Sequence record: PZ495249.1
DNA length: 64,000 nt
Strand: one strand, 5' to 3'
Origin: a phage
Part shown: positions 3,829 to 55,838 of the stretch, one piece after another
Numbering within the stretch: position 1 is the first letter of the stretch
How the letters are laid out: each line of letters begins with the position of its first letter
Made by a program: the position numbers and the translations under genes
Notes under the pieces: generated by a model
The model's input: only the letters and a program-made list of their open reading frames with translations
Database searches by the model: none
What the model was told of the DNA's origin: nothing

Positions 3829-4482
3829 ATGAGTGCATTAGAGAAACTGCGTAGCCTGTTCGAAGAAGATTTTGTTATTGATGTGGACTACAACGCAGCT
3901 AAGAGCCGCAAAGCTACAGCTTTATTTCAAGATGTAAGGGATATGGGTATTCATTTCACCGTCTGCGAGAATTTTGAAGATACTTGGATGGGTAAAACTG
4001 GTTTCACAATTGATAACTGGAACTATATGGGTATCAAAGACGGTGACACCGAGATCGATGACTGCGACTGGAGTGATCGTGATCCTCTCGAAGTAGAAGA
4101 GTTTGAAGAGATGGTTAGTGCAGCAATATCGGAATTCCAGTATCTGCAAAGTTTACCATCTTCAACCACTCTTGCAGTAGGTGTAAATACTGCTCCAGTG
4201 GCAATCGTGTTGGGTGATAATCTGGTAGTTAGCGGTGGTGTAGTTGTCGTCAACTATAAAAACGGTAGTTCTTACCACCTGGAACATGACGGTAAAGCTA
4301 CTCTGATCGTCGCAGACAAGGTGGTAGTCACAGAGCGTACTTTCCTGAAAGATGGTCAACCAGCCTACGAGCGTGTGACTGTCAAACTGGAATCTCTGGA
4401 TAATATTCAGAGCGACACCCTCAAGCTCACCGTCCTTGAAGATGGCGCTAAAGTGGACTTCACCACCACTTTCACACTGTAA
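3829..4482 (+). CDS. hypothetical protein
   Basis: 217 aa ORF; RBS aaggagaa; followed by an intrinsic terminator. Confidence 0.5.
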   Translation: MSALEKLRSLFEEDFVIDVDYNAAKSRKATALFQDVRDMGIHFTVCENFEDTWMGKTGFTIDNWNYMGIKDGDTEIDDCDWSDRDPLEVEEFEEMVSAAISEFQYLQSLPSSTTLAVGVNTAPVAIVLGDNLVVSGGVVVVNYKNGSSYHLEHDGKATLIVADKVVVTERTFLKDGQPAYERVTVKLESLDNIQSDTLKLTVLEDGAKVDFTTTFTL

Positions 4483-10778: not shown

Positions 10779-13364
10779 ATGGGAGCATTTACTTTCGACA
10801 TTGAAAGTAACAACTTGCTTAATGATGAGAGTGTGGATTACCTGTCAAGTCCTTATCGACTGAAAGACAGTTTCGAGATGCACTGTATTGTATGCGAGAG
10901 TCATGACACCGGAGAGATTATTGCTTTCCACGATGGAGACAAGTATCACTTCGATGGTCGTCCTTACGTAGAGACTGACGGGAAATACACTTACAGCCTG
11001 TTAGAATACGAACATCAGGATTACACCCATTTTCCAATGAGCGCATTCCGAGACTTCGTTAAAGGCACTGGTGTATTTGCCAACAAACCTCAGTACAAGA
11101 TTACGAAAGTAGTTGGTCATAACATTATCAACTTTGACTTGTTAGCCATTAAACTCTACTTTAAAATGAATTACAGCGTGAAATACAATACTTGGGATAA
11201 TCAGGATGTAGAAATCTGTGATACCATGATCCTGAGTAAAGTGCTGAACCCTGACCGTTTCGGTGGTCATAGCCTGGCGGAATTATCCAGCAAGGCAGGT
11301 GGTGATGTTAAGCTTGACTTCCGTAAAGATATTCCGGTTGAAGATCGATTCAAAACGTTTGCAGCAGACATGCTCTATTACTGTATTTACGATAACAAAT
11401 CGAACACCGCCGTATATAAATATCTGATGGAAGAATGGGGAGACTACGATAAATGGGCGGAACCATTTATTCTTGAACAACGTATTGCTGATATTATCAC
11501 TCGTCAGGAACACCGTGGCTTCGCTTTCAATATGAAACAAGCCGAAGAGAATATAAAAGATCTTGATTCTAAGATGGAAGCGTGTAGACTTGAGGCTGAA
11601 CCTATTCTTCCTCCGAAACCTGCAACGAAAGGTTATCTGAAAGACTTCATTCCGCCTAAACTCCAGTTTAAGAAGAATGGTGATCCAACGAGTAACATTA
11701 CGAAGTTTGCAGCTAAGCATGGTGGTGAACTGGTTGAACGTGAAGATGGATGGTGGTTGATCGCCTTGGATAAGGAAATGAAACTTCCTATCTCCAGTGA
11801 AGAGCCAATCTGTGAACCTACTGTTCCGGCTACACTGAACGACACGACACACATCAAGAACTGGCTGGTAGGATTAGGCTGGAGTCCTTCTGAGTACAAA
11901 GATAAAGACATTACGTTGAAGTCTGGTACTAAGATTAAAAAGGACGAGGCGCAGATGGAGAAAGCGATTCGCGATTACGTGGATCAAACTTTAGCATCAA
12001 ACTTCTGTCAAGATCGTTGTGACCACCTTGAATGTACGCCTGAAACTCTTGAGTGGAAGCTGCGTGACCGTATTGCTAAGGCAAAAGGTAAAGGTGTGAA
12101 GGTATTGACTAACCCATCATTCACCAAGGGGCAGGAGAAAGAGATTTGTCCTAACTTGGCTGAACTGGGTGAGAAGTTCCCGTATGCTACCCAGATCGTG
12201 GAATACCTGACGTACAAACACCGTCGAAACTCTATTCTCGGTGGTGGTGCAGATTGGGAAGATGATGAAGAGGATCAGGAATACAACAAAGGTTATCTTG
12301 CAGCAGTAAGGGCAGACGGGCGTATTCCAACGCCAGCGGCAACGTGTGACGCTGCTACTTCTCGTATGAAACACCGTCTTGTTGCTAACATTCCTCGTGT
12401 AACCTCTCTATACGGTTTCCAGATGCGTAACATGTTTGGTGTAGAGGTTCCGGCATACTTCCAGATTGGTTATGACTTTGACTCACTTGAGGCGAAGATT
12501 GAATCACATTACTGCTGGAGATATGAAGCAGAGCCGCATGAATATTGTAACGCTCTTCTGTTAGAAAAGCCGCACGATGTTCACTCAATGATGGCACGAC
12601 GCATTACAGAAACTATCGGACGTAAGTTTGAACGTGCTCCGGCTAAATCTGTTAAGTATGGTATCACATACGGCGCTCAGGCTGCGAAGGTGGCTAAGAC
12701 AATCGGTAGTGATATGCACACAGGCCAGATGGTTTATGATGCATTCTGGGAAGCTGCAAAGCCTCTCGCATTACTGAAAGAACGTCTGCATGACTTCTGG
12801 GTTAAAACAGGTAAGAAATACATTCTCGGTATCGACGGACGTAAAGTGCCTACCCGTTCTGCTCACGCTATCCTGAACTCACTTTTCCAGAGTGGCGGGG
12901 TAATCTGTGCGAAACGTGCAATGGTGATTTACGACGACCTGATCGAAGAAGAAGGGCTGGCAGTTGACTTCTTTGTTGACGATTGGAAAAACAAATCCTT
13001 CGTGCAGCAAATGATCGCTTACCACGATGAAGCACAACTTGAGGTTACTCGTGACCTGGTTGAGTTCAAATGGTTCTCCAAAGAATCTCTGGGCTGGATT
13101 CAAGTTGAGGATGAGAAAGAGCAGGAACGAATCGACAAAGAATGTATGGCTAAAGTAAATGCGTGGAAAGCTGAGGAAGAAACTCGTACTGGTAAGATCT
13201 GGGCTAACGTACACGAATCTCCGAAAGGTGGTTGGTTTACTGGCTACAGTCGTGCAGGTGAACTGGCATCCATCGCAGTTAAGAAAGCAGGTGAATTCTA
13301 TGGCCTGAACGTAGAACTGACAGCAGGTTATGACTTAGGTAATTCCTGGGCGTCCTGTCACTGA
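10779..13364 (+). CDS. DNA polymerase, family A, with 3'-5' exonuclease domain
   Basis: Exo I FDIESNN; motif A YDFDSLEAKI; motif B RAPAKSVKYGITYGAQAAK; motif C YHDEAQLEV; 861 aa. Confidence 0.9.
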   Translation: MGAFTFDIESNNLLNDESVDYLSSPYRLKDSFEMHCIVCESHDTGEIIAFHDGDKYHFDGRPYVETDGKYTYSLLEYEHQDYTHFPMSAFRDFVKGTGVFANKPQYKITKVVGHNIINFDLLAIKLYFKMNYSVKYNTWDNQDVEICDTMILSKVLNPDRFGGHSLAELSSKAGGDVKLDFRKDIPVEDRFKTFAADMLYYCIYDNKSNTAVYKYLMEEWGDYDKWAEPFILEQRIADIITRQEHRGFAFNMKQAEENIKDLDSKMEACRLEAEPILPPKPATKGYLKDFIPPKLQFKKNGDPTSNITKFAAKHGGELVEREDGWWLIALDKEMKLPISSEEPICEPTVPATLNDTTHIKNWLVGLGWSPSEYKDKDITLKSGTKIKKDEAQMEKAIRDYVDQTLASNFCQDRCDHLECTPETLEWKLRDRIAKAKGKGVKVLTNPSFTKGQEKEICPNLAELGEKFPYATQIVEYLTYKHRRNSILGGGADWEDDEEDQEYNKGYLAAVRADGRIPTPAATCDAATSRMKHRLVANIPRVTSLYGFQMRNMFGVEVPAYFQIGYDFDSLEAKIESHYCWRYEAEPHEYCNALLLEKPHDVHSMMARRITETIGRKFERAPAKSVKYGITYGAQAAKVAKTIGSDMHTGQMVYDAFWEAAKPLALLKERLHDFWVKTGKKYILGIDGRKVPTRSAHAILNSLFQSGGVICAKRAMVIYDDLIEEEGLAVDFFVDDWKNKSFVQQMIAYHDEAQLEVTRDLVEFKWFSKESLGWIQVEDEKEQERIDKECMAKVNAWKAEEETRTGKIWANVHESPKGGWFTGYSRAGELASIAVKKAGEFYGLNVELTAGYDLGNSWASCH

Positions 13365-14977: not shown

Positions 14978-15886
14978 ATGCCAGTAATTAATTCCGAAAT
15001 CGACCGCAAGACTAAACAAGAAGCATTCTGGGCTGAGGGTATTGTAGAATACGTTAAGCTGGATAAGTTTGCAGAGATGAAAGTCTCTTACATTAAAGTC
15101 GCTGGTCAGCCGGATAAGAAAATTGAGTCCACTCACAAAGCTTCCATTCTTCTGAAAGAGAAAGGTGCTGGTAAGGATGATCCAGGTGTTTGGATCGGTC
15201 TGGGTGATGTTAAGCTGCATCCAGAGCATGAAAATCTGCAAGTCAAGAAAGACGACCAGTGGGTGACTATCGAACGTGGTGTTGAAATTACACTGGACGT
15301 TAAGCCTAATGAATGGCAGGGTAAAACTTATTACCAATCATCCAAAGGTAAGATCTTCGTTGTATCTACCGAAGGTGTTCAAGCTGCTGCTCCGAAAGCA
15401 GGAAAAGGTGGTGATAGCACTCCAGCTAAACAACCGTTCAAGAAACGCGATACCGTAGGTATTGAAACTGGTCACGCTGTTAACGGTGCTCTTGAGCTAA
15501 TCCGTGGTGGTGTGAAAGGTGATGCCTTTGAACTCGCAGGTGTAGTACAGTCTGCCACTGTAACGCTGAAAGCAGAAGTTGCTAAGGCTCGTGGTGTGGA
15601 TATCACTGATTACGATCTGGGTGCTTCTGTCGGTCATGCTATCCTGAATGCTTGCCGTGATCACTCTCGCGATGATGTGACCATTGACGAACTGATTGAA
15701 GCTGCTCGCGATGTGCTGGCGCTATCTGATAAGGTGGCTGCTGCAATCCGTGGTGATGCTCCTGTTGCTGAATCCAAACCAGCCGCAGAGAAGCCAAAGA
15801 CAACTCGTAAGCCAAAAGAGGCGGTAAAAGCTCCTGAGCCAGAGCCAGAACCTCCAATGGACTTCGACGACGATATTCCTTTCTAA
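14978..15886 (+). CDS. ssb: single-stranded DNA-binding protein
   Basis: Ends PMDFDDDIPF, the canonical acidic SSB C-terminal tail; Gly/Ala/Pro-rich linker; RBS agaggagaa; sits with polymerase and primase. Confidence 0.8.
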   Translation: MPVINSEIDRKTKQEAFWAEGIVEYVKLDKFAEMKVSYIKVAGQPDKKIESTHKASILLKEKGAGKDDPGVWIGLGDVKLHPEHENLQVKKDDQWVTIERGVEITLDVKPNEWQGKTYYQSSKGKIFVVSTEGVQAAAPKAGKGGDSTPAKQPFKKRDTVGIETGHAVNGALELIRGGVKGDAFELAGVVQSATVTLKAEVAKARGVDITDYDLGASVGHAILNACRDHSRDDVTIDELIEAARDVLALSDKVAAAIRGDAPVAESKPAAEKPKTTRKPKEAVKAPEPEPEPPMDFDDDIPF

Positions 15887-20362: not shown

Positions 20363-23300
20363 TTACGTCGTTGGTACATCGTTTGGAGTTGGACGAATTA
20401 CCGCAGTGTTACCCACTGAAACATTACTTGCGTCGTTAGGAACAGTTTTAATTCTAATTCCAGCCGCAGTAGCTGTTTGAATAGGATCGGCAATATCAAT
20501 CTTGACAGGGTTTGTCCACAGGTCATTATCTTGATATGGTGCGCGGGTAATTACAGTATCGAGATCTGCACCACCTGCACCTGCCCCAGGAATACGGATA
20601 CGTGTTCCGGCTGATAATGGGTAATGGTATAACCAAGAAGCGTTTGTCGCCGTTCCATTTGGTACTAAGTTCTGAGCCAGTGATTTATCGCCAACAGTTG
20701 TTGCACGAATTCCGAATGCTGCAATATCTGGGATATATGCACCACTTGTCGTAACAAGGAAGAACGTGTTATCTGCTTTAACGATCATGTCACCTTTATC
20801 AAACTCTTTCCCAGTTGGGAAGTGCAGACCATCAATGTTTCTGCTTGGGTTAGCTTCCAGGTAATAAACCTTTCCGGTAGAACCAAGAAGAGCACCAATT
20901 CCGCCAGCGATGTTGGTATACATGTTGGCTTCAACGTTACAGTTGACACGGTGAATGTCAGAGTAACGGCAACGGCTCCATGCTGGACGACCACTAACCA
21001 TTGTGTTACCATTTGGGTAGCAGTTTACGTTAACCATTTCAAGAACAGATTTCTCGCGACGGAAGAATCCATCGTAGAATGTACCTGGTCCTGACTCTGG
21101 TTGACCAACACACTCGAAGCTGTTACAAGTGATGTTTGACATTGACAGCCAAGAAGCAATACCGAATAGCTGTAGTGCAGCACAACGGATGTTCTCGAAG
21201 CTCACACGGTTTTCAAATCCTGGTCCTGCTGAAACACCTGCGAACACACGCCCTGTGCGGGTATGAACGTTCTTAACAGAGTAGTTGAAGCAAGGGTTTG
21301 AAGGTCTACCTTGTGGTGGCTGAACTGGTTGTCCATCCGGTCCCAATACTGGGTTAGTACCCCACTCCAAGTAAATCAGACGGATATTACTTGCTGGAGT
21401 GTTAGCATCAGTTTTAGGTTCACCGTAAACACCGTCAATCGTGAAGTCTTTGCTTCCGTACATTACCACTGCACCTGTTGCTAAACCAGTACCTGTCGAA
21501 ACAGTCTGATCAGGATCACCGTGGATGTTCTCAATAGTAATGTTACGTCCAACTTCTACGTGAACAATTTGACGACAACGTTTTGCAAACACGTTGCGGA
21601 TTGTGATATTCTTACAGTATTGACTGTCTGGGATATCGTAACCATATGGTCCCTGTCCTGCCACACCGATACCGATACCCCAGTTGGAGTTAGCGATAGG
21701 AGCGTTTGTACCGTCAATGTTAGACAGATAGATGTTCTCGATCACACAACCATCATCATAGTGTTTACTGATAACGTTAAGTTCGATAGCATCACCTTGC
21801 ATATCCATGAAGGTAAGGTTGCGGAATACACCACGAGTTACAGGCTCACCAGTACCTTGTTGAAGAATACCGTATAAACCGTTTTTGAAGGTACAGTTGT
21901 CAATCTCGAATGTACCCGTGATTGGGTTGCCCTGGAATACCAGGCTACCAACTTGTCCTGCGCGTGGCGCACCGTCCCACAGGCAGTCGTAGATACGAAC
22001 TGCACCACCCCAATACATAACGCGAGCGTTACGGAAGGTTACACCTTCTAAGGTAGCATTTTGTAAACGATAGTCACGTTGACCACGGAATACACCACCT
22101 TTCAGCGTGATACCAGTGATATCAAAGCTGCTTGTAGTGAAAGTCATGTCACACCCGTAGGCGTTCAACACTTTCCCTTTGCTGTTAGCAGTTGCTGTCA
22201 GAGCCGCCTGGAAAGCTGCTTCTGGTGTGGTGTATTTTGAATTGTTCGCAAACTCAGACAAGTAAACAACGTCGAACAGATCGTTGAATACACCACCGTG
22301 TGGTGTTAGAAGCGCTTCTGTGTTCGTCAGAACCCAAGTGGTAGGGCTAACCCCTCCGCTGCTTTCTAAAGTGTCTGTAGCTGAAATTGTCTTAGGTAGA
22401 GTACCAGCCCAACGATAACGACCTGAACCCATACCGATAGTTTGGTTCTTGATAGTTAAAGTAGCTGCGTTACCGAAGCTCGTTGGCAGGTGAACAAATT
22501 GTCCACGTTCAACAGCCAGTGCAGCAAGGTCAACTGTACCACCTGAGTAAGTTAACACACCTGTTGCAGAAAGGCTACCGAAGTTACCGCTAATACCTAC
22601 TGGTAGAGTGTACGCTGCTTGGGTTGTAGGATCGTAAAGAGCCTTAATCCCTGTTAGAGACTGCCCTGTTTGTGCTAAACCAACTTCTGCATCTTTCAGA
22701 CCGAACTTACGTGCCACAATCTGTGTTGGAACTTTACTCATCTGAGTCGTCAGATCAGAAGTAGTAGTTTCCAGTGCAGTAACACGGTTTGCCAGGTTAG
22801 GATCGTTATCTGCGGCAGCTACAATTTTACCAATGTACGCAAACAGTTTGTTAGGTAGTCCAGTAGCAGGATCTAAACCAAGAGGTTCAGAAAGAATGAT
22901 CTTGCTGTCCTGAATAGTATACGCATCACCAACAATCTGCACAACCCCGTTGATAGTTACGATAGCACTATCAAACACGTATGGAGGGCTGATAACTTTC
23001 TCATAACCTGTTGCGCCAGTGTACAACCAAGGGTATACTTCGTTAGCAAGCTGTTCAGTTTTCATAGCCCAGAGAACCCAGTTATTATCTCCTACTGGAG
23101 TCCCTTGCATAGGGATTGGGTTAGCGGTTGTCGCTGTTGGAGCGTAGTAATACCCACTCAGAATCCCATTCTGGAAGAAACGGAGTTGGTTAAATACTGT
23201 TTCATTAGTACCTGCCGCCCAAGCGACAGGGCTTTTGAAATAGAAGTTATCAAGCAACGCTTTACGCAGCGTAGGAATTAAACCTGTTTCAGTTTCAACC

Positions 23301-50449: not shown

Positions 50450-50524
50450 TGGTTGTAGCAGATGGAATCGAACCATCATCAATCGGTTATCAGCCGAACG
50501 TATTAGCCGTTATACTATGCCACA
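50450..50524 (-). tRNA. tRNA-Ile (anticodon GAT)
   Basis: 7 bp acceptor with encoded CCA, loop CTGATAA, T arm GATGG-TTCGATT-CCATC; hand-folded. Confidence 0.55.
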
Positions 50525-50530
50525 ATTGTT

Positions 50531-50613
50531 TGGCATCCAGGTGAGGAATCTAACCCCTTGAAACTGGTTTTGGAGGCCAGCAACGGGAACACCCATTTTT
50601 AATCTACCCAGAT
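50531..50613 (-). tRNA. tRNA-like element, possibly Trp (CCA) with aberrant D region
   Basis: Acceptor pairs with two G/U wobbles; loop CTCCAAA; T loop TTAGATT lacks C56; D region about 7 nt too long. Confidence 0.25.
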
Positions 50614-50619
50614 ATTGTT

Positions 50620-50695
50620 TGGAGGCGGGAGCCGGAATCGAACCGACCTGCGACAAGCATATGAAACTTGTGAGTTCCCAGAACTCTATCCCGCA
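50620..50695 (-). tRNA. tRNA-Met (anticodon CAT) with U1/C72 mismatch
   Basis: Loop TTCATAT, T arm GTCGG-TTCGATT-CCGGC, CCA encoded. Confidence 0.5.
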
Positions 50696-50776
50696 CTTTT
50701 GGTTGATAGTAAGAGAATCAAACTCTTCTCACAACGCCGTATGAAAGCGTCCGAAACATCAGCTTCACACTATCAA

Positions 50777-51040
50777 TTAAACACGATGGATTATTTTAAC
50801 TGTCTCACCCTTATCATTCATAAGGTAGGCACTTTCATTCCTATGAATAAAGTCCGTAGAGTTGCCACTAATGACACTTGCAATAACACCATCCAGCTTA
50901 TCATAACCTTCAAAATGATATTGGATGTGTATATTTCCATCAAGTTCTATATAATGTTCTTCTTCATCTACCTCGTAAGGTACTGAGTCATAAATTTTTG
51001 TCCCTTTGGGGAACTTGCGAACTATTTTCAATGTATACAT
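50777..51040 (-). CDS. hypothetical protein inside the tRNA array
   Basis: 87 aa; RBS gaaggaaa. Confidence 0.4.
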   Translation of the reverse strand: MYTLKIVRKFPKGTKIYDSVPYEVDEEEHYIELDGNIHIQYHFEGYDKLDGVIASVISGNSTDFIHRNESAYLMNDKGETVKIIHRV

Positions 51041-51124
51041 AGTATTTCCTTCGTAGTGTTTATATTAGTAATATGCCGTCCCAAGCCGAACGGCGATTAG
51101 TGTTTTAGCTTGGCATTGATAATA

Positions 51125-51199
51125 TGGTACTTCCTGGAGGAATCGAACCACCGACGCTCACCTTGTAAGGATGACGTTCTACCATTGAACTAAGGAAGT
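51125..51199 (-). tRNA. tRNA-Val (anticodon TAC)
   Basis: D arm GTTC-AATGGTA-GAAC, loop CTTACAA, T loop TTCGATT. Confidence 0.6.
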
Positions 51200-51272
51200 A
51201 TGGCGGGGATTTTCCGCACTGTCTATCGCGATATGGACTCGGACAGTGTTCTCGGCTAAATACCCCATTGTT

Positions 51273-51359
51273 TGGTACATCAGGTCAGACTCGAACTGAC
51301 ACGCCCTCACGAGCACTGGAACCTAAATCCAGGGCGTCTACCAATTTCGCCACTGATGC
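51273..51359 (-). tRNA. tRNA-Leu (anticodon TAG), long variable arm
   Basis: Loop TTTAGGT, 15 nt variable arm, T loop TTCGAGT. Confidence 0.6.
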
Positions 51360-51367
51360 ATTTAATT

Positions 51368-51444
51368 TGGTGGAGAAGTGGAGAATCGAACTCCATACTC
51401 GAAGGTGCAAACCTCGTGTTTTAACCGAATATTACTACATCCCC
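51368..51444 (-). tRNA. tRNA-Ala (anticodon TGC)
   Basis: Loop TTTGCAC; G3/U70 wobble in the acceptor stem (Ala identity element); T arm TGGAG-TTCGATT-CTCCA. Confidence 0.6.
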
Positions 51445-51506
51445 AATTTGTATACACTACACAGAAGATAGGTCTGATTGCCTCGGCAGTTGCCGTAGTG
51501 TTTATC

Positions 51507-51582
51507 TGGTACGGATGGAAGGAGTCGAACCTCCGACGCAGGGCTTCGTAGACCCTCGTTCTATCCACTGAACTACACCCGT
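51507..51582 (-). tRNA. tRNA-Arg (anticodon ACG)
   Basis: D arm GTTC-AGTGGATA-GAAC, loop CTACGAA, T arm GGAGG-TTCGACT-CCTTC. Confidence 0.7.
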
Positions 51583-51588
51583 ATTGTT

Positions 51589-51663
51589 TGGTGCAGAGTG
51601 TTGGTAACGATCCAACCTGTGTGGCTTTTCAGACCACCACTAATCCATCTCAGTTAACTCTGC
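51589..51663 (-). tRNA. tRNA-Phe (anticodon GAA)
   Basis: Loop CTGAAAA; T loop ATCGTTA (A54/U58 covariation). Confidence 0.6.
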
Positions 51664-51669
51664 ATAATC

Positions 51670-51745
51670 TGGTCAGTGAGAGAGGACTCGAACCTCCAAC
51701 AGCTACGCCCCAAACGTAACACTCTACCACTTGAGCTACTCACTG
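51670..51745 (-). tRNA. tRNA-Pro (anticodon TGG)
   Basis: C1-G72 first pair typical of bacterial tRNA-Pro; loop TTTGGGG. Confidence 0.6.
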
Positions 51746-51752
51746 ATAAATC

Positions 51753-51827
51753 TGGCTACAGGTCTTGGGATCGAACCAAGTCATACGGTGGTCAAAGCAC
51801 CGTGCCTTCCCATTTGGCTACCCTGTA
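51753..51827 (-). tRNA. tRNA-Gln (anticodon TTG)
   Basis: U1-A72 and 3 bp D stem GCC/GGC as in E. coli tRNA-Gln; loop CTTTGAC. Confidence 0.6.
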
Positions 51828-51834
51828 ATTAAAT

Positions 51835-51922
51835 TGGTATCGTGGACGAGATTCGAACTCGCAAGGGATTACTCCCGCCAGATTGAAAGTCTGGTTACTT
51901 AGGCCGTTTTGTATACCACGAT
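51835..51922 (-). tRNA. long-variable-arm (type II) tRNA with anticodon loop CTTTCAA (anticodon TTC); isotype ambiguous
   Basis: Perfect acceptor ATCGTGG/CCACGAT, anticodon stem CCAGA/TCTGG, 15 nt variable arm with GGGA-GTAA-TCCC stem, T arm GCGAG-TTCGAAT-CTCGT. Confidence 0.45.
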
Positions 51923-52025
51923 ATAAAATTTCTTAAAGAGAACTGCTGAAAGTTGAAGGAGAAAACCATGAGCGAAAAGAGAAAAGGTTTCCAGCAGTTC
52001 CATTTAAAAAATCTCGTAGGGTTGT

Positions 52026-52104
52026 TGGCGCGGGTGACAGGATTCGAACCTGCGACGAACTGGGTGGAAGCCAGACACTCTACCAAACTGAGTTACACAC
52101 GCGC
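52026..52104 (-). tRNA. tRNA-Gly (anticodon TCC)
   Basis: Loop CTTCCAC, T arm GCAGG-TTCGAAT-CCTGT; D region slightly long. Confidence 0.5.
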
Positions 52105-52170
52105 TGATTAACAACTCTATAATACTACTCTACTACATTTTAGCCCTCGTTGTCAAGGGCTTTTGACAAA

Positions 52171-52497
52171 TTATTTCAGAAGTTTTTCCAAACCTTGCTT
52201 CATCGCATACTCTATGAAGAAGTTTAGTTCACCGATTAACTCTGGTTCCCACTGGTCTTCCAAGCCATAACATGAACAATGTCCACCATGAACTTCATAA
52301 AACTTATTGTCACGCTTATCGTAGAAGTAAACATCGGATGATCCAGTGTAGCACTCATACGTATAATCTGCGTACAGGATGATAATATCATCTTCTGTTA
52401 GATCAACATGATAATCACTCATCACTTGATCGAAGTCTGAAAAGTCGTTATCATACACGTCAACATGCAGATACTTTTCTAATTCTTGTTTATCCAT
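52171..52497 (-). CDS. hypothetical acidic protein inside the tRNA array
   Basis: 108 aa; strong RBS aagaggaggaaac; HGGHCSCYG motif. Confidence 0.5.
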   Translation of the reverse strand: MDKQELEKYLHVDVYDNDFSDFDQVMSDYHVDLTEDDIIILYADYTYECYTGSSDVYFYDKRDNKFYEVHGGHCSCYGLEDQWEPELIGELNFFIEYAMKQGLEKLLK

Positions 52498-52737
52498 GTT
52501 TCCTCCTCTTTAGAATATGTGGGGCAGTGACGGATACCCCTTTGGGTGACAAACCCTACGTTCGGAAGCTCGGTCAGACTGACACAAAACACGAAGTCAA
52601 ATGTCCTTCCTCCCTGCTGTCGATTGGAGAGAGCCGATCCCCTCTGAACTTCATTTAAGCGCGATACCACTTAGGGCTGTCTAACACTTTCCTGAACTTA
52701 CCAATCCACCTAATCCCAGTCACGGTTTCGGATTTTC

Positions 52738-52813
52738 TGGTGCTCCCACACTGAATCGAACAGTGATTTGCGGGTTACAAAGCCGCAGTAATAGGCCATT
52801 ATACGATAGGAGC
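52738..52813 (-). tRNA. tRNA-Thr (anticodon TGT)
   Basis: T arm CACTG-TTCGATT-CAGTG, loop TTTGTAA closed by a C/C mismatch. Confidence 0.55.
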
Positions 52814-52819
52814 AAATTT

Positions 52820-52895
52820 TGGCGGGCAATATTGGATTCGAACCAATTACCATTCGGTTAACAGCCGACCGCACATCCGTATGTGCTTATCACCC
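52820..52895 (-). tRNA. tRNA-Asn (anticodon GTT)
   Basis: Loop CTGTTAA, T arm ATTGG-TTCGAAT-CCAAT, acceptor with two G/U pairs. Confidence 0.55.
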
Positions 52896-52973
52896 ATGTT
52901 CTTCGTTAAGAGTAGGCGCGTTTCATCAGTCGCCTCGTGTTATTTTCTCCTGTTTCCAGGCTCCCTTTAGTGC

Positions 52974-53096
52974 TCGCGAGGGAGGGATTCGAACCACTCA
53001 CCTCTGCCAGAGCCAACCAGATCTTTCGGGTAATTACTCCGTCCAACCATTTGATTAACCTGCTGGCAGCGTCCATCGCCCTTAGACTGCCTCGCG
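52974..53096 (-). ncRNA. tRNA-like element, 123 nt, perfect 7 bp acceptor but weak T stem (pseudo-tRNA or tRNA with insertion)
   Basis: Acceptor CGCGAGG/CCTCGCG, T loop TTCGAAT present, about 35 nt more than a type II tRNA. Confidence 0.2.
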
Positions 53097-53136
53097 TCTG
53101 TCAATTCAGATGCCACTAAAGCTCTCTCAACTAATT

Positions 53137-53220
53137 TGGTGTGGGTAGATGGATTCGAACCACCGCGCCTTTCGGATCAGATTTACAGTCTGGTGCATTC
53201 AGCCACTCTGCCATACCCAC
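53137..53220 (-). tRNA. tRNA-Tyr (anticodon GTA), long variable arm
   Basis: Loop CTGTAAA, T arm GGTGG-TTCGAAT-CCATC, CCA encoded. Confidence 0.7.
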
Positions 53221-53226
53221 ATTGTT

Positions 53227-53303
53227 TGGTGCGCCGGAAAGGATTCGAACCTTTAGTCCTCTCATTAAAAGTGAGATGCCTTATCCAGTTTAGCTACCGA
53301 CGC
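53227..53303 (-). tRNA. tRNA-Lys (anticodon TTT)
   Basis: D arm GCTA-AACTGGATAA, loop CTTTTAA, T arm AAAGG-TTCGAAT-CCTTT. Confidence 0.7.
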
Positions 53304-53443
53304 ATAAATTTTCTTTAGGATAGGAAGTGTGGGGCACTTCACTATTTATATCGGTGATGGTTGCCGCCATCTGCCGAAAGTTTACTCTATCTAAGTAAGA
53401 GTCGAAACGCTACACGAATAGTATTTCTATCATAAAGAAAACT

Positions 53444-53529
53444 TGGCGGAAGAGGGGAGGGTTGAACTCCCACGCCCTTTCGGACGGCAGTTTAGCAAAC
53501 TGCTATGGCTACCATTTCATCACTCTTCC
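53444..53529 (-). tRNA. tRNA-Ser (anticodon GCT), long variable arm
   Basis: Loop TTGCTAA, 14 nt variable arm, T arm GGGAG-TTCAACC-CTCCC. Confidence 0.65.
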
Positions 53530-53537
53530 ATTTTGTT

Positions 53538-53614
53538 TGGCAGTCGCGACGGGTTACGATCCCGCATTCTCTCCCGTGACAGGGGAGTACCATTACCAAG
53601 CCAGCCCCGCGACT
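53538..53614 (-). tRNA. tRNA-Asp (anticodon GTC)
   Basis: Anticodon arm CTCCC-CTGTCAC-GGGAG; T loop ATCGTAA. Confidence 0.65.
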
Positions 53615-53621
53615 ATTAATT

Positions 53622-53711
53622 TGGAGGAAGATAATGGAGTCGAACCATCACCGTATCACTACAATGGGCCAGGGTTCAAATCTGGTTGCGTACCACTACG
53701 CCCTATCTTCC
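53622..53711 (-). tRNA. tRNA-Ser (anticodon TGA), long variable arm
   Basis: Acceptor GGAAGAT/ATCTTCC, loop TTTGAAC, long variable arm. Confidence 0.55.
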
Positions 53712-53775
53712 AATCTATACTTCTTAGTCTATCATACTTTTCAATCGGTTGTCAATAGCTTTTTGAAAATTATTT

Positions 53776-53853
53776 TGGTCGGGGAGATAGGACTCGAACC
53801 TACATTTCCTCCATTACGCTATACGGCTTAGAAGACCGCCACGGTACACCCCG
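53776..53853 (-). tRNA. tRNA-like element, possibly Arg (TCT), with aberrant D region
   Basis: T arm GTAGG-TTCGAGT-CCTAT and arm GCGGT-CTTCTAA-GCCGT present, but no canonical D arm and 19 nt between anticodon and T arms. Confidence 0.3.
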
Positions 53854-53881
53854 ATCTCTTAGTGCTGACTATAACATAACT

Positions 53882-54052
53882 TATTCGTTACTGTCAAGCT
53901 CTTTTTTAATTTCTTTTCTTGCTTTCTGACGTTCAGTGGCTTTACACACTTCCTGCCAAGATTCGTACTCGTCACCTTTACGGTAGCCACGGCTACGACA
54001 AAGGGAGCAGAGACAACCTTCTTGACGATATTTCAAACCATGAGGTTTCATA
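53882..54052 (-). CDS. hypothetical small Cys-rich protein (not in ORF track, 56 aa)
   Basis: ATG after strong RBS aaggaggatatATG; MKPHGLKYRQEGCLCSLCRSRGYRKGDEYESWQEVCK. Confidence 0.4.
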
Positions 54053-54064
54053 TATCCTCCTTAA

Positions 54065-54139
54065 TTGGTGAGCATTACCAGATTCGAACTGGTGTCTTTC
54101 GGGTTTAGAATCCTACGCTTTACCGCTAAGCTAAATGCC
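54065..54139 (-). tRNA. tRNA with anticodon CTA (candidate amber suppressor); low-confidence fold
   Basis: Acceptor GGGCATT/AATGCTC, D arm GCTT-AGCGGTA-AAGC, T arm ACCAG-TTCGAAT-CTGGT, loop TTCTAAA; anticodon stem has two mismatches. Confidence 0.35.
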
Positions 54140-54371
54140 CTTCGTAAATGTCACGACTATCAGGATCGTGATACAATTCTGCAATTTCTTTACTTAAAGT
54201 AGCTCTCAGTATAATCCCTTTGTGCGAAACAATCAAGTAGATTTTCGTTTCACTTACATCTCCAGGGGCTAAGAGTTTACCTCTTACAATCCGCAAACGT
54301 TCTGCTGAATACCCTTCTTCGAGATCAGCCAACATATCTGCCAACGATTTAGAGAAAGTTAACCGATGCAA
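54126..54371 (-). CDS. hypothetical protein (TTG start, weak)
   Basis: 81 aa ORF with weak RBS; 3' end overlaps the CTA tRNA. Confidence 0.25.
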   Translation of the reverse strand: MHRLTFSKSLADMLADLEEGYSAERLRIVRGKLLAPGDVSETKIYLIVSHKGIILRATLSKEIAELYHDPDSRDIYEGHLA

Positions 54372-55459
54372 GGTATTACTTTCACGGTTTACAATTCCCC
54401 AGATACGATCATCCAGTTTGCAACTTCCTGACTCACAATTAGTCTATGACATTTTCGTTCTCCTGTTTGTTAATAAAACATATAAAGAAGGACAATGATC
54501 AGGTGACGTTTGCCAACGCCCTGCCGAAGTTCCGAAGATTGCAAGTCTTCGCTTGAACCGCATTTCATCAGGAGTAACGTATGATCAGTACGTTTTTCCG
54601 AAATGCTCACACCCCACGGTGCTGACAGTTTTAACACCAATCAATGCCTTTCTTTATATGTTCTGTCGATGGTGGAGGACGGTACGGGATTTTAACCCGT
54701 CTAAACTGGTTTGCAATCAGCCACATAGACACTCTGACAACCGTCCCATCGAAAAGCCAGTCTGTTCCTGGCTGTCACCACAGTTTTAACATTCTGTGGC
54801 TTGAACGTAGGAGCTATTCGATGCTGGCATTCTCCCGTAGCTCTGCCTTTATAGGGGTATGAACCCGTAGGGCGCACCTTATTGTTCCGTTCAAGGGATC
54901 ATGTTGAATGTTAACCTCTGCTTTTCCTTTAGGTTATTCGGAGAGGTACAACGATTGGGTTAGCGAAGCCCAAACACCTCCAGAGCAAACAACAATCTCC
55001 AAAACTGGTGTGACTGGTGGGGCATGATCCCACATCATCTCCTTCACAGGGAGGAACGTTAACCAGCTTACGCTCACAGTCACCATTGTTTGTAGTGTCT
55101 CCAAGGCTTCCTATTCCATCCTAAGATGATCCACCCCTTCAACTAACGCGCTACATCCCTACGAAGAATGAACGTCATTCTCATCGTCTGAAATCTTGTT
55201 CAGAGCATACCACTGCGGAGATTAACCCGCTTCTCATCCTACGTGGTCGGTAGTAGTTGTCAATCAAACAACTCGTAAAATATATTCTCGTAAGAACACA
55301 TATTGCGAGAGTTTGGCACCAGGAGGAGGAGTCGAACACTCCTAATCAGGTCATGACTCCTGACTATCTCAAACCAAACACTGTTGTGTCGGCTATTGCA
55401 TAACAGCGAGCGCTCACTCCTATGCAGACCTTCACCAGTGTCGAGATCCTGGTATTGTT

Positions 55460-55550
55460 TGGTACGGGTGACGAGATTCGAACTCGTAAGATCATCAAAG
55501 ACCTGGGGGATTTTAAGTCCCATGTGTACTGCCAATACCACCACACCCGC
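55460..55550 (-). tRNA. tRNA-Leu (anticodon TAA), long variable arm
   Basis: Anticodon arm GGGA-CTTAAAA-TCCC as in E. coli Leu-UAA; T arm ACGAG-TTCGAAT-CTCGT; 91 nt. Confidence 0.7.
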
Positions 55551-55558
55551 TTTATTTA

Positions 55559-55741
55559 TTATCGACGAAGAATATCAATCACTTCGCCAAGCAACGCACT
55601 GTACGCCGCATCTTCGAGAATATCCTTCTGGAGTTCACTGTCAATCCCTGTTACGCTCTCGACAGTATCTGTTACCGGAGATACAACATCACGAGCAACG
55701 CTGGTAACATCATCAAGCACTTCACCGATAAATCCGAACAT
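55559..55741 (-). CDS. hypothetical small acidic protein
   Basis: Start set at ATG 55741 after RBS aaagaggagaa. Confidence 0.4.
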   Translation of the reverse strand: MFGFIGEVLDDVTSVARDVVSPVTDTVESVTGIDSELQKDILEDAAYSALLGEVIDILRR

Positions 55742-55760
55742 AATATTCTCCTCTTTAAGT

Positions 55761-55838
55761 TGGTGGTTCCACCTGGTTTCGAACCTGGACACTCTCGGTT
55801 ATGAGCCGAGTGCTCTGACCTACTTGAGCTATGGAACC
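55761..55838 (-). tRNA. tRNA with anticodon CAT (elongator Met or Ile2)
   Basis: Perfect acceptor GGTTCCA/TGGAACC, anticodon arm CTCGG-CTCATAA-CCGAG, T loop TTCGAAA. Confidence 0.6.

Follow-up and report, generated by a model that had tools for sequence, protein, structure and literature searches.

Why should a phage that ends some of its own genes with UAG carry a transfer RNA (tRNA) that reads UAG? The question is posed by a tRNA gene with the anticodon CUA, here tRNA(CUA), in phage sequence record PZ495249.1, of which we analyzed one stretch of 64,000 nucleotides (nt), called the window throughout. The window belongs to a phi92-like myovirus of the Klebsiella-type Stephanstirmvirinae; its closest relatives, which share about 84% identity with it in the tRNA region, are three Klebsiella phages, KP2025, KP13-26, and phi1_175008. 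We think it probable, judging from comparisons among phages, that tRNA(CUA) is a working phage-encoded amber suppressor and that a small neighboring gene, interrupted near its start by an in-frame TAG, is its dedicated client, the two making up a two-part cassette. What carries this reading is the tRNA and its conservation, the in-frame stop (the gate), the conservation of coding after the gate, the loss of both genes as one block in a related phage, the recurrence of the layout in other phages, and the match between the gating stop and the anticodon nearby. The tRNA is placed as follows.

54066-54140, minus strand: tRNA with anticodon CUA (amber-suppressor type), A73, and encoded CCA; from ARAGORN, Rfam RF00005, the cloverleaf, and 13 near-identical copies.
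54106-54108, minus strand: anticodon CTA in the loop TTCTAAA; from ARAGORN and the sequence, invariant in 13/13 copies.

ARAGORN reports the anticodon cta at 54066-54140 and prints the name "tRNA-Pyl," which is merely the program's label for that anticodon; the name is a software artifact. The Rfam tRNA model, RF00005, matches over its full length (1-71) with 60.2 bits (gathering score, 29), the fourth-best score among the approximately 25 tRNAs of the cluster at 50450-55838. The acceptor stem has 7 bp (GGGCAUU/AAUGCUC, with G2.U71) and is followed by the discriminator A73 and the encoded CCA. The D stem is GCUU/AAGC, the variable loop has 5 nt (AAGAC), and the nucleotides of the tertiary interactions (U8, A14, G18 G19, U33, and the T loop UUCGAAU) are all intact. 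The anticodon loop, UUCUAAA (U33, A37, A38), reads UUCUAAC in some relatives; the stem below it is UAGGA/CCCGA. The original prediction, made from the letters of the window, had described a tRNA with good acceptor, D, and T arms, and ARAGORN, the Rfam score, and our cloverleaf reading all bear this out; the place was right, while the coordinates, given as 54065-54139, were one base off. Its CUA anticodon, flanked by U33 and A37, agrees with ARAGORN and with the loop, and the two anticodon-stem mismatches that it remarked on are real (A28.G42 and A31.C39). The check with ARAGORN that it proposed returned a tRNA with a stop-reading anticodon, not a sense anticodon. Amber suppression is the best reading of such a tRNA, although the activity itself is deduced from sequence.

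Altogether, 13 copies of tRNA(CUA) were found: 8 on metagenome contigs, 4 in GenBank phages, and 1 on an IMG/VR contig. Variation among them is confined to three unpaired positions, 16, 26, and 38; CTA is invariant, and both anticodon-stem mismatches are kept in 13/13. The flanks of the tRNA are about 84% identical among relatives, and at the 16% divergence seen there a stretch of 75 nt would show no more than 3 differences with a probability of approximately 0.001. The tRNA is far more conserved than chance allows; it is real and under selection. It is also the only tRNA of the cluster at 96 to 99% identity in all four relatives compared. The cluster as a whole is a mosaic (window 52026-55838 compared with L001, L002, L003, and L005; such labels are our own): each of the Gly, Thr, Asn, Tyr, Leu-taa, and Met tRNAs, when close relatives are compared, is either nearly identical or all but impossible to align, as though alleles had been swapped gene by gene.

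Records of the relatives already annotate the tRNA, as tRNA-Pyl or tRNA-Sup-CTA, and the phi1_175008 paper does not discuss it (PMC11726925). It is absent from phage phi92 itself. By blastn, only the four Klebsiella phages matched among 50,697 phage records; there was no match in 5,426 E. coli genomes and no close paralogue within the window's own tRNA cluster. Neither blastn nor degenerate arm and stem patterns found a relative with a sense anticodon. D-arm plus anticodon-arm patterns, used as a search for an ancestor, led to unrelated Trp, Gly, and Asn tRNAs, and acceptor-stem patterns matched tRNA-Val(GAC), also unrelated, which was taken as a coincidence of stems. The idea that the CUA tRNA replaces a missing tRNA-Trp was dropped because a tRNA-like gene with a Trp anticodon exists at 50540-50608.

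Is the phage genome recoded? TAG terminates 9/82 long ORFs (open reading frames) in the window and 24/248 in KP2025, about 10%. TAG is therefore an ordinary stop in this phage, and genome-wide recoding is excluded. All frames that merge across a TAG lie antisense to longer ORFs, with one exception, the ORF adjoining tRNA(CUA). The original prediction had seen nothing to suggest TAG recoding in the genes of the window; this stands for the genome at large and fails for that one gene, which has a conserved in-frame TAG at codon 3. If the TAG-ended genes of the window are read through, tails of 0 to 22 codons result. In both the window and KP2025, these tails are neither shorter nor longer than those after TAA or TGA, with no pattern of back-up stops, and we rejected a programmed C-terminal extension of such genes on this ground. 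In the baseplate-wedge and NAMPT genes, whose TAG stops are conserved, no conserved extension follows the stop. Three apparent long in-frame read-throughs in KP2025 (15081-15701, 72099-72359, and 124163-124372) were set aside as neighboring genes that share a frame by chance.

The exceptional ORF lies directly upstream of the tRNA, and its 3′ end reads ...GAA GGG CAT TTA GCT TAG. The features around it are these.

54126-54452, minus strand: amber-gated ORF (phrog_29342), with ATG at 54452-54450, then TCA, TAG, 105 sense codons (54443-54129), and the stop TAG (54128-54126); from alignment and codon-position variation.
54444-54446, minus strand: the gate, TAG in frame as the third codon, with A as the next base; unchanged across the 12 genomes of the clade, which have 11 distinct ORF sequences.
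54459-54464, minus strand: Shine-Dalgarno (SD) sequence AGGAGA, located six bases ahead of the gated ORF's ATG; from sequence and alignment.
54126-54140, minus strand: 15-nt overlap of ORF and tRNA, in which the last four sense codons and the stop are tRNA nt 1-15; from sequence.
53881-54051, minus strand: downstream small ORF of 56 amino acids (phrog_14783), with an SD directly after the CCA of the tRNA; context only, and different between relatives.

Gene finders give only an 81-amino-acid ORF here (54371-54126), with a TTG start and a match to phrog_29342 (E = 4e-08), a family of unknown function. That start is not conserved, being CTC in L014, L022, and L023 and TTA in L005, L020, and L025 in the alignments of relatives; the reading frame, in the nine-relative alignment, is conserved well upstream of it. 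The leader AGGAGAA-N3-AAA-ATG-TCA-TAG-AC is invariant in the 12 genomes. Among the 11 distinct sequences, codons 4 to 28 vary at positions 1/2/3 in 7/2/20 columns, and 17 columns are synonymous only, compared to 4 that are nonsynonymous, including an AGT/TCA serine switch. Because the variation follows codon positions and is mostly synonymous, the 25 codons between the TAG and the TTG are, on comparative grounds, translated in the frame of the gated ORF. The first conserved canonical in-frame start after the gate is codon 40; that is, there is none for a further 36 codons. Independent gene callers had already given the protein as "MSQTNCE...HLAQR," with the TAG read as Gln. Gene callers start the gene 25 to 39 codons late, so that in current annotations it is shortened or absent.

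A scan for an SD, an ATG, up to 8 codons, a TAG, and a long ORF had the gated ORF as its sole match, both in the window and in the complete 149.5-kb genome of KP2025. In FKP3, a phage of the same proposed genus without the CUA tRNA, the ORF and the tRNA are missing together as one clean block of about 400 nt, and the junction of the block falls at the SD.

The protein belongs to a family that we defined by a CxxxxC near the N-terminus, the motif [LI][HY]R[LI]TFSKSLA, and a length of about 100 amino acids, all of which the window ORF has. Protein searches gave 25 close homologues and 205 more distant cluster representatives at E <= 1e-3; the gated homologues cited below with a cognate tRNA have 31 to 57% identity. 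One 1825-amino-acid match, P0026, was repetitive sequence and was judged spurious, and a motif search of 185,579 species genomes found no bacterial copies of the family. Gene callers had translated the TAG as Gln in many of the database entries, which for this reason read "M-x-Q-..."; this was verified on the DNA for P0021 and P0055. We call a gate layout an SD, an ATG, 0 to 5 codons, and an in-frame stop right before the conserved N-terminus, so that the stop falls at codons 2 to 7. This layout is present in 17 lineages, with TAG in 14, TGA in 2, and TAA in 1; the phages concerned are Acinetobacter T4-like, Pseudomonas, annotated-Synechococcus, and metagenomic. Examples, with the nearest cognate tRNA where one was found, are the following.

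L026: ATG ACA TAG (M-T-TAG); 6-nt overlap of the ORF with a CUA tRNA whose sequence is quite different.
BUCT-ZZ01, annotated as infecting Synechococcus: MGSDGS-TAG; CUA tRNA about 575 nt upstream.
Acinetobacter T4-like phages KARL-1, Acj9, and vB_AciJM_313: M-K-H-TAG; CUA tRNA 25 to 360 nt upstream.
Pseudomonas phage Astolliot: M-K-E-TAG; CUA tRNA about 280 nt upstream, given as tRNA-Leu in GenBank.
IMG/VR contigs L045-47: M-K-TAG; CUA tRNA 2.2 kb away, with no other tRNA in 12 kb.
L050: TGA gate, M-T-W-S-TGA; UCA tRNA 2.7 kb away.
L062: TGA gate, M-TGA; UCA tRNA 95 nt away.
L052: TAA gate.

A cognate tRNA thus lies nearby in 6/14 TAG-gated lineages (CUA) and 2/2 TGA-gated lineages (UCA), and no gate was seen beside a noncognate suppressor among the lineages examined. 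In vB_AciJM_313, the tRNA lacks an annotation. The six CUA tRNAs show no sequence relationship to one another; each carries A37 A38, A73, and an encoded CCA, and in several the anticodon stem contains mismatches. TAG makes up 14/17 gates although it ends only about 10% of genes; in an earlier, conservative tally, the probability of at least 12 TAG among 14 gates was about 1e-8 to 1e-10. The base after every tabulated gate is a purine, and a purine after an amber codon favors suppression in E. coli. Ungated members of the family also exist (L053, P0028, and P0032). Other members have further in-frame stops inside the gene, a TAG in L043 and L049 and a TGA at codon 60 in L027.

Three of these lineages have peculiarities of their own. 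In the L027-type branch, seen on 10 contigs, the protein has a normal N-terminus (MLPCNTGSCK; L027 4001-4318, also L028-L030), and the conserved protein continues beyond the TGA at codon 60; no suppressor tRNA lies within 8 kb. Metagenomic L037 keeps an M-S-TAG gate, and its tRNA (4196-4271) has lost 1 nt from the anticodon loop, and its D loop is longer; ARAGORN then calls it Arg(tct), and it may be a decaying or re-registered suppressor. Alishewanella phage Slickus01 (L051) has an M-K-R-L-K-TAG gate, and no tRNA with the anticodon CUA turned up in its first 45 kb. Just upstream of that gate, a stretch resembling the acceptor and T arm of a tRNA (L051 about 20990-21060, ending ...GGTGACTGACCA) was considered and discarded, as neither ARAGORN nor Rfam recognizes it.

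How might the pair in the window work? We imagine that ribosomes initiate at the SD-ATG and reach the UAG at codon 3. Without charged tRNA(CUA), they would terminate there and release fMet-Ser, at trivial cost; with it, an amino acid would be inserted and the 107-residue protein completed, and the output of protein would track the amount of UAG read-through. Such an arrangement is most likely a translational gate or sensor and not genome-wide recoding. An amber codon at position 2 of a reporter is efficiently suppressed in E. coli (PMC5389517). Here, charging of tRNA(CUA) and its decoding of the gate are presumed. Our best guess for the amino acid is lysine, given A73 and U35 and given that tRNA-Lys(CUU) is the sole class I A73 tRNA one mutation away from CUA. 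The enzymes that charge many CUA tRNAs are the glutaminyl- and lysyl-tRNA synthetases, GlnRS and LysRS, which makes glutamine the alternative.

The overlap of ORF and tRNA could add a competition. RNase P, cutting at the 5′ end of the tRNA, would remove the last four codons and the stop of the ORF and turn the message into a non-stop one; ribosomes translating to the end of the ORF would open up the 5′ half of the tRNA. We imagine that this exerts negative feedback on maturation of the suppressor in the clade of the window and in L026. In other lineages the tRNA lies upstream of the gated ORF without overlap.

Several points weigh against this account. The support for charging, decoding, and read-through is comparative. 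The anticodon stem of tRNA(CUA) has just three Watson-Crick pairs. An unconstrained minimum-free-energy fold omits that stem and the cloverleaf, with an energy no better than that of shuffled sequences (z = -0.29); since free-energy folding fails to form the stem, it is the covariance model and conservation that support the structure. Mismatched stems are found in the CUA tRNAs of other lineages as well. An active suppressor would be expected to extend the approximately 10% of phage genes that end in TAG, as well as host genes, and the tails of the former are without back-up stops. The protein lacks a recognizable fold or family, which leaves its role to guesswork. No suppressor was found for eight TAG-gated lineages and the TAA-gated one, in sequences mostly 1 to 12 kb long and in the first 45 kb of Slickus01; the TAG gates concerned are those of L031-36, L043, L048, L056, L063, L069, and Slickus01. 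Lastly, the codon after the gate is AUN, AUG, or GUN in 10/14 tabulated gates, with GTN also in Acj9 and vB_AciJM_313, and these codons align with the start Met of ungated homologues.

This last point feeds the main alternative to a suppressor-read gate, namely, that ATG-TCA-TAG is a two-codon leader that loads ribosomes, which then re-initiate on the main ORF at the next codon, leaving the CUA tRNA unconnected. Because the codon after the gate (ATT, ATA, ATC, ATG, or GTG in many lineages) aligns with the initiator Met of ungated members, re-initiation stays alive for those lineages; it would also sit well with the occurrence of all three stop codons as gates. Nonetheless, we consider it unlikely as an explanation of the locus. 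ACT in the window and ACT or ACG in its clade, AAT or AAC in Astolliot and L056, and GTT in L026 are not start codons. Nor does re-initiation account for the preponderance of TAG, for cognate suppressors in the neighborhood, including the two TGA/UCA pairs, or for the joint loss of ORF and tRNA in FKP3, and the internal in-frame stops in L043, L049, and L027 are beyond its reach.

If tRNA(CUA) does act in translation, it might instead serve at large, reading host and phage UAGs for host manipulation, as insurance against nonsense mutations, or as a first step of recoding, with the TAG of its neighbor simply tolerated. Standard-code phages occasionally have such tRNAs, and recoding has been proposed to arise from them (bioRxiv 10.1101/2021.08.26.457843; PMC8386662), and targets would be plentiful, TAG ending 9 to 10% of phage genes. 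A tolerated accident, though, would not stay invariant at codon 3 in 11 distinct sequences, nor would it recur at codons 2 to 7 in more than 14 lineages with unrelated tRNAs; the read-through tails of TAG-ended genes are patternless as well. We judge a general-purpose suppressor decidedly unlikely.

It is very improbable, in our estimate, that the RNA never enters the ribosome at all, being a decaying gene, a decoy, or a target mimic, for instance of a host anticodon nuclease. The two stem mismatches, the shuffle-like folding energy, and the L037 relative with its deleted anticodon-loop nucleotide would fit such an RNA, and phage tRNAs are known to counter tRNA-targeting defenses (as cited in PMC11726925). 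On the other hand, tRNA(CUA) is the most uniformly conserved member of a mosaic cluster, its tertiary nucleotides, U33, A37, and encoded CCA are intact, its changes are confined to unpaired positions, and a decoy leaves the cognate stop in the neighboring gene unexplained.

That the RNA is genuinely a pyrrolysine tRNA, taking the name given by ARAGORN and in GenBank literally, deserves practically no credence: the anticodon is the only likeness, and the hallmarks of that class (6-bp anticodon stem, 3-nt variable loop, small D loop without G18 G19, and atypical T loop) are all missing from an RNA with an anticodon stem of five pair positions, a 5-nt variable loop, G18 G19, and a normal T loop; the Enterobacteria hosts are not known to have a Pyl system. 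The annotated products of KP2025 suggest no pylS or pylBCD; among the ORFs of the window, only some were screened for them.

A suppressor with a dedicated client thus remains our preferred reading, and it can be set against systems already described. In recoded phages (crAss-like, Lak, and others, using code 15), there is likewise a phage tRNA(CUA) in a standard-code host and an in-frame TAG in a phage gene, and such a TAG has been proposed to make expression tRNA dependent (bioRxiv 10.1101/2021.08.26.457843). Here, unlike in those phages, one small gene is gated, at codon 3, TAG is the normal stop of about 10% of genes, and client and tRNA are physically coupled and lost together. Klebsiella phage phiKp24 carries an orphan tRNA-Sup-TTA in a standard-code genome (PMC8386662); it resembles our phage as a lytic Enterobacteria phage whose numerous tRNAs include a single stop-reading one without an assigned role, but no client has been reported for orphans of this type, whereas here one is identified.

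Two systems of bacterial genetics also invite comparison. The E. coli prfB gene, encoding RF2, autoregulates through an early in-frame UGA and +1 frameshifting, by which it senses its own product. As in prfB, an early in-frame stop would turn termination efficiency into an expression signal; the escape here is presumably through a dedicated suppressor tRNA and not a +1 frameshift. The classical amber suppressors supE, supF, Su7, and T4 psu1+ are laboratory mutants of sense tRNAs; suppressors of this bacterial and T4 kind are reportedly the subject of McClain's 1970 study, to which PMC8386662 refers. The tRNA of the window shares with them a normal class I body, CUA, A37, and A38, and presumably charging by host synthetases; unlike them, it is a conserved wild-type gene, and no relative with a sense anticodon was detected.

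Phage suppressor tRNAs, TAG-recoded phage genes, orphan suppressors, and the annotation of tRNA(CUA) in relatives are thus already known. What appears to be new is one conserved stop-gated gene with a cognate suppressor, recurring across unrelated standard-code phages. We found no account of a suppressor tRNA coupled to a stop-gated neighbor in the literature covered, which mostly excludes subscription journals. Suppressor tRNAs in standard-code phages have so far been treated as curiosities or annotation noise; a client gene gives them a concrete, testable job and makes tRNA-gated translation accessible as a natural case of one gene, in phages and hosts that can be cultured. The arrangement also agrees with the sequence of events proposed for recoding, in which a suppressor is acquired first and in-frame stops follow.

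What might the gated protein do? Family and fold searches found no recognizable fold or family for it; its AlphaFold model is confident (predicted local distance difference test [pLDDT] score, 87) but resembles nothing known. Its neighbors in other phages are more suggestive. In KARL-1, the gene after the gated ORF (L041 1790-2026) encodes a 78-amino-acid RF-1-domain (ArfB-like) protein (PF00472, E = 9e-12), and in Myxococcus phage Mx1, the gene before the homologue (L039 1193-1453) encodes a peptidyl-tRNA hydrolase, PTH2. ARAGORN calls a transfer-messenger RNA (tmRNA) immediately after the gated ORF in BUCT-ZZ01 (L038 1964-2382) and in an IMG/VR contig (L069 5511-5944), with predicted tags ANDETFSMALAA and ANDNFTFGEFALAA, respectively. 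Because homologues adjoin RF-1-domain, PTH2, and tmRNA-like genes, we propose that the protein handles the consequences of read-through; the neighborhood hints at a protein that is itself induced by read-through. One can envision, more tentatively, a self-contained mobile cassette that senses read-through and has spread among unrelated large, tRNA-rich phages, with a product acting on termination or ribosome rescue, feedback on the tRNA in the clade of the window, and a place as the missing first step to stop reassignment. We regard this fuller scheme as possible but on balance doubtful. The Mx1 homologue also sits near a TROVE-domain protein.

A conserved noncoding stretch of about 190 nt lies between the tRNA-Cys gene and the gated ORF (54475-54666, minus strand). 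In nine relatives, RNAalifold predicts a multihelix structure closed by a long-range stem, with pairs changed on both sides (e.g., 27-170, 41-146, 75-93, 79-89, 112-139, and 151-162). It contains two CUGAUCA motifs, has no Rfam match, and occurs also in FKP3, where the cassette is missing. The stretch may represent a leader or a small stable RNA.

Within the tRNA cluster, three tRNA or tRNA-like loci escaped ARAGORN in the window. The tRNA-like gene with the Trp anticodon (50540-50608, minus strand, extending to about 50536-50612; loop CUCCAAA) matches only the tRNA-Sec model (26.8 bits). Its D stem has 6 bp and a 4-nt loop, and its T stem has 4 bp; the acceptor is AUCUGGG/CCUGGAU, followed by G and CCA. 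This shape recalls the noncanonical phage tRNAs of PMC5389517. At 53779-53853 (minus strand) is an Rfam tRNA match of 33.7 bits in the place of the relatives' tRNA-Arg(TCT), to which it is only about 30% alignable; its loop CTTCTAA gives the anticodon TCT, and its D and variable regions are odd. The third is tRNA-Cys(GCA) at 54676-54746 (minus strand; Rfam, 42.1 bits), whose orthologue ARAGORN does call in relatives. The relatives also carry in this cluster a 476-amino-acid DUF2828 protein (L001 2173-3603, L002 1735-3165, and L003 2171-3601), the gene for which is missing from the window between 53711 and 53779.

Outside the cluster, the DNA polymerase of KP2025 (L010 29166-32147) is annotated as two pieces 477 nt apart, and the window has a single 861-amino-acid ORF (10779-13364); the split in KP2025 could be an intron, an intein, or a matter of annotation.

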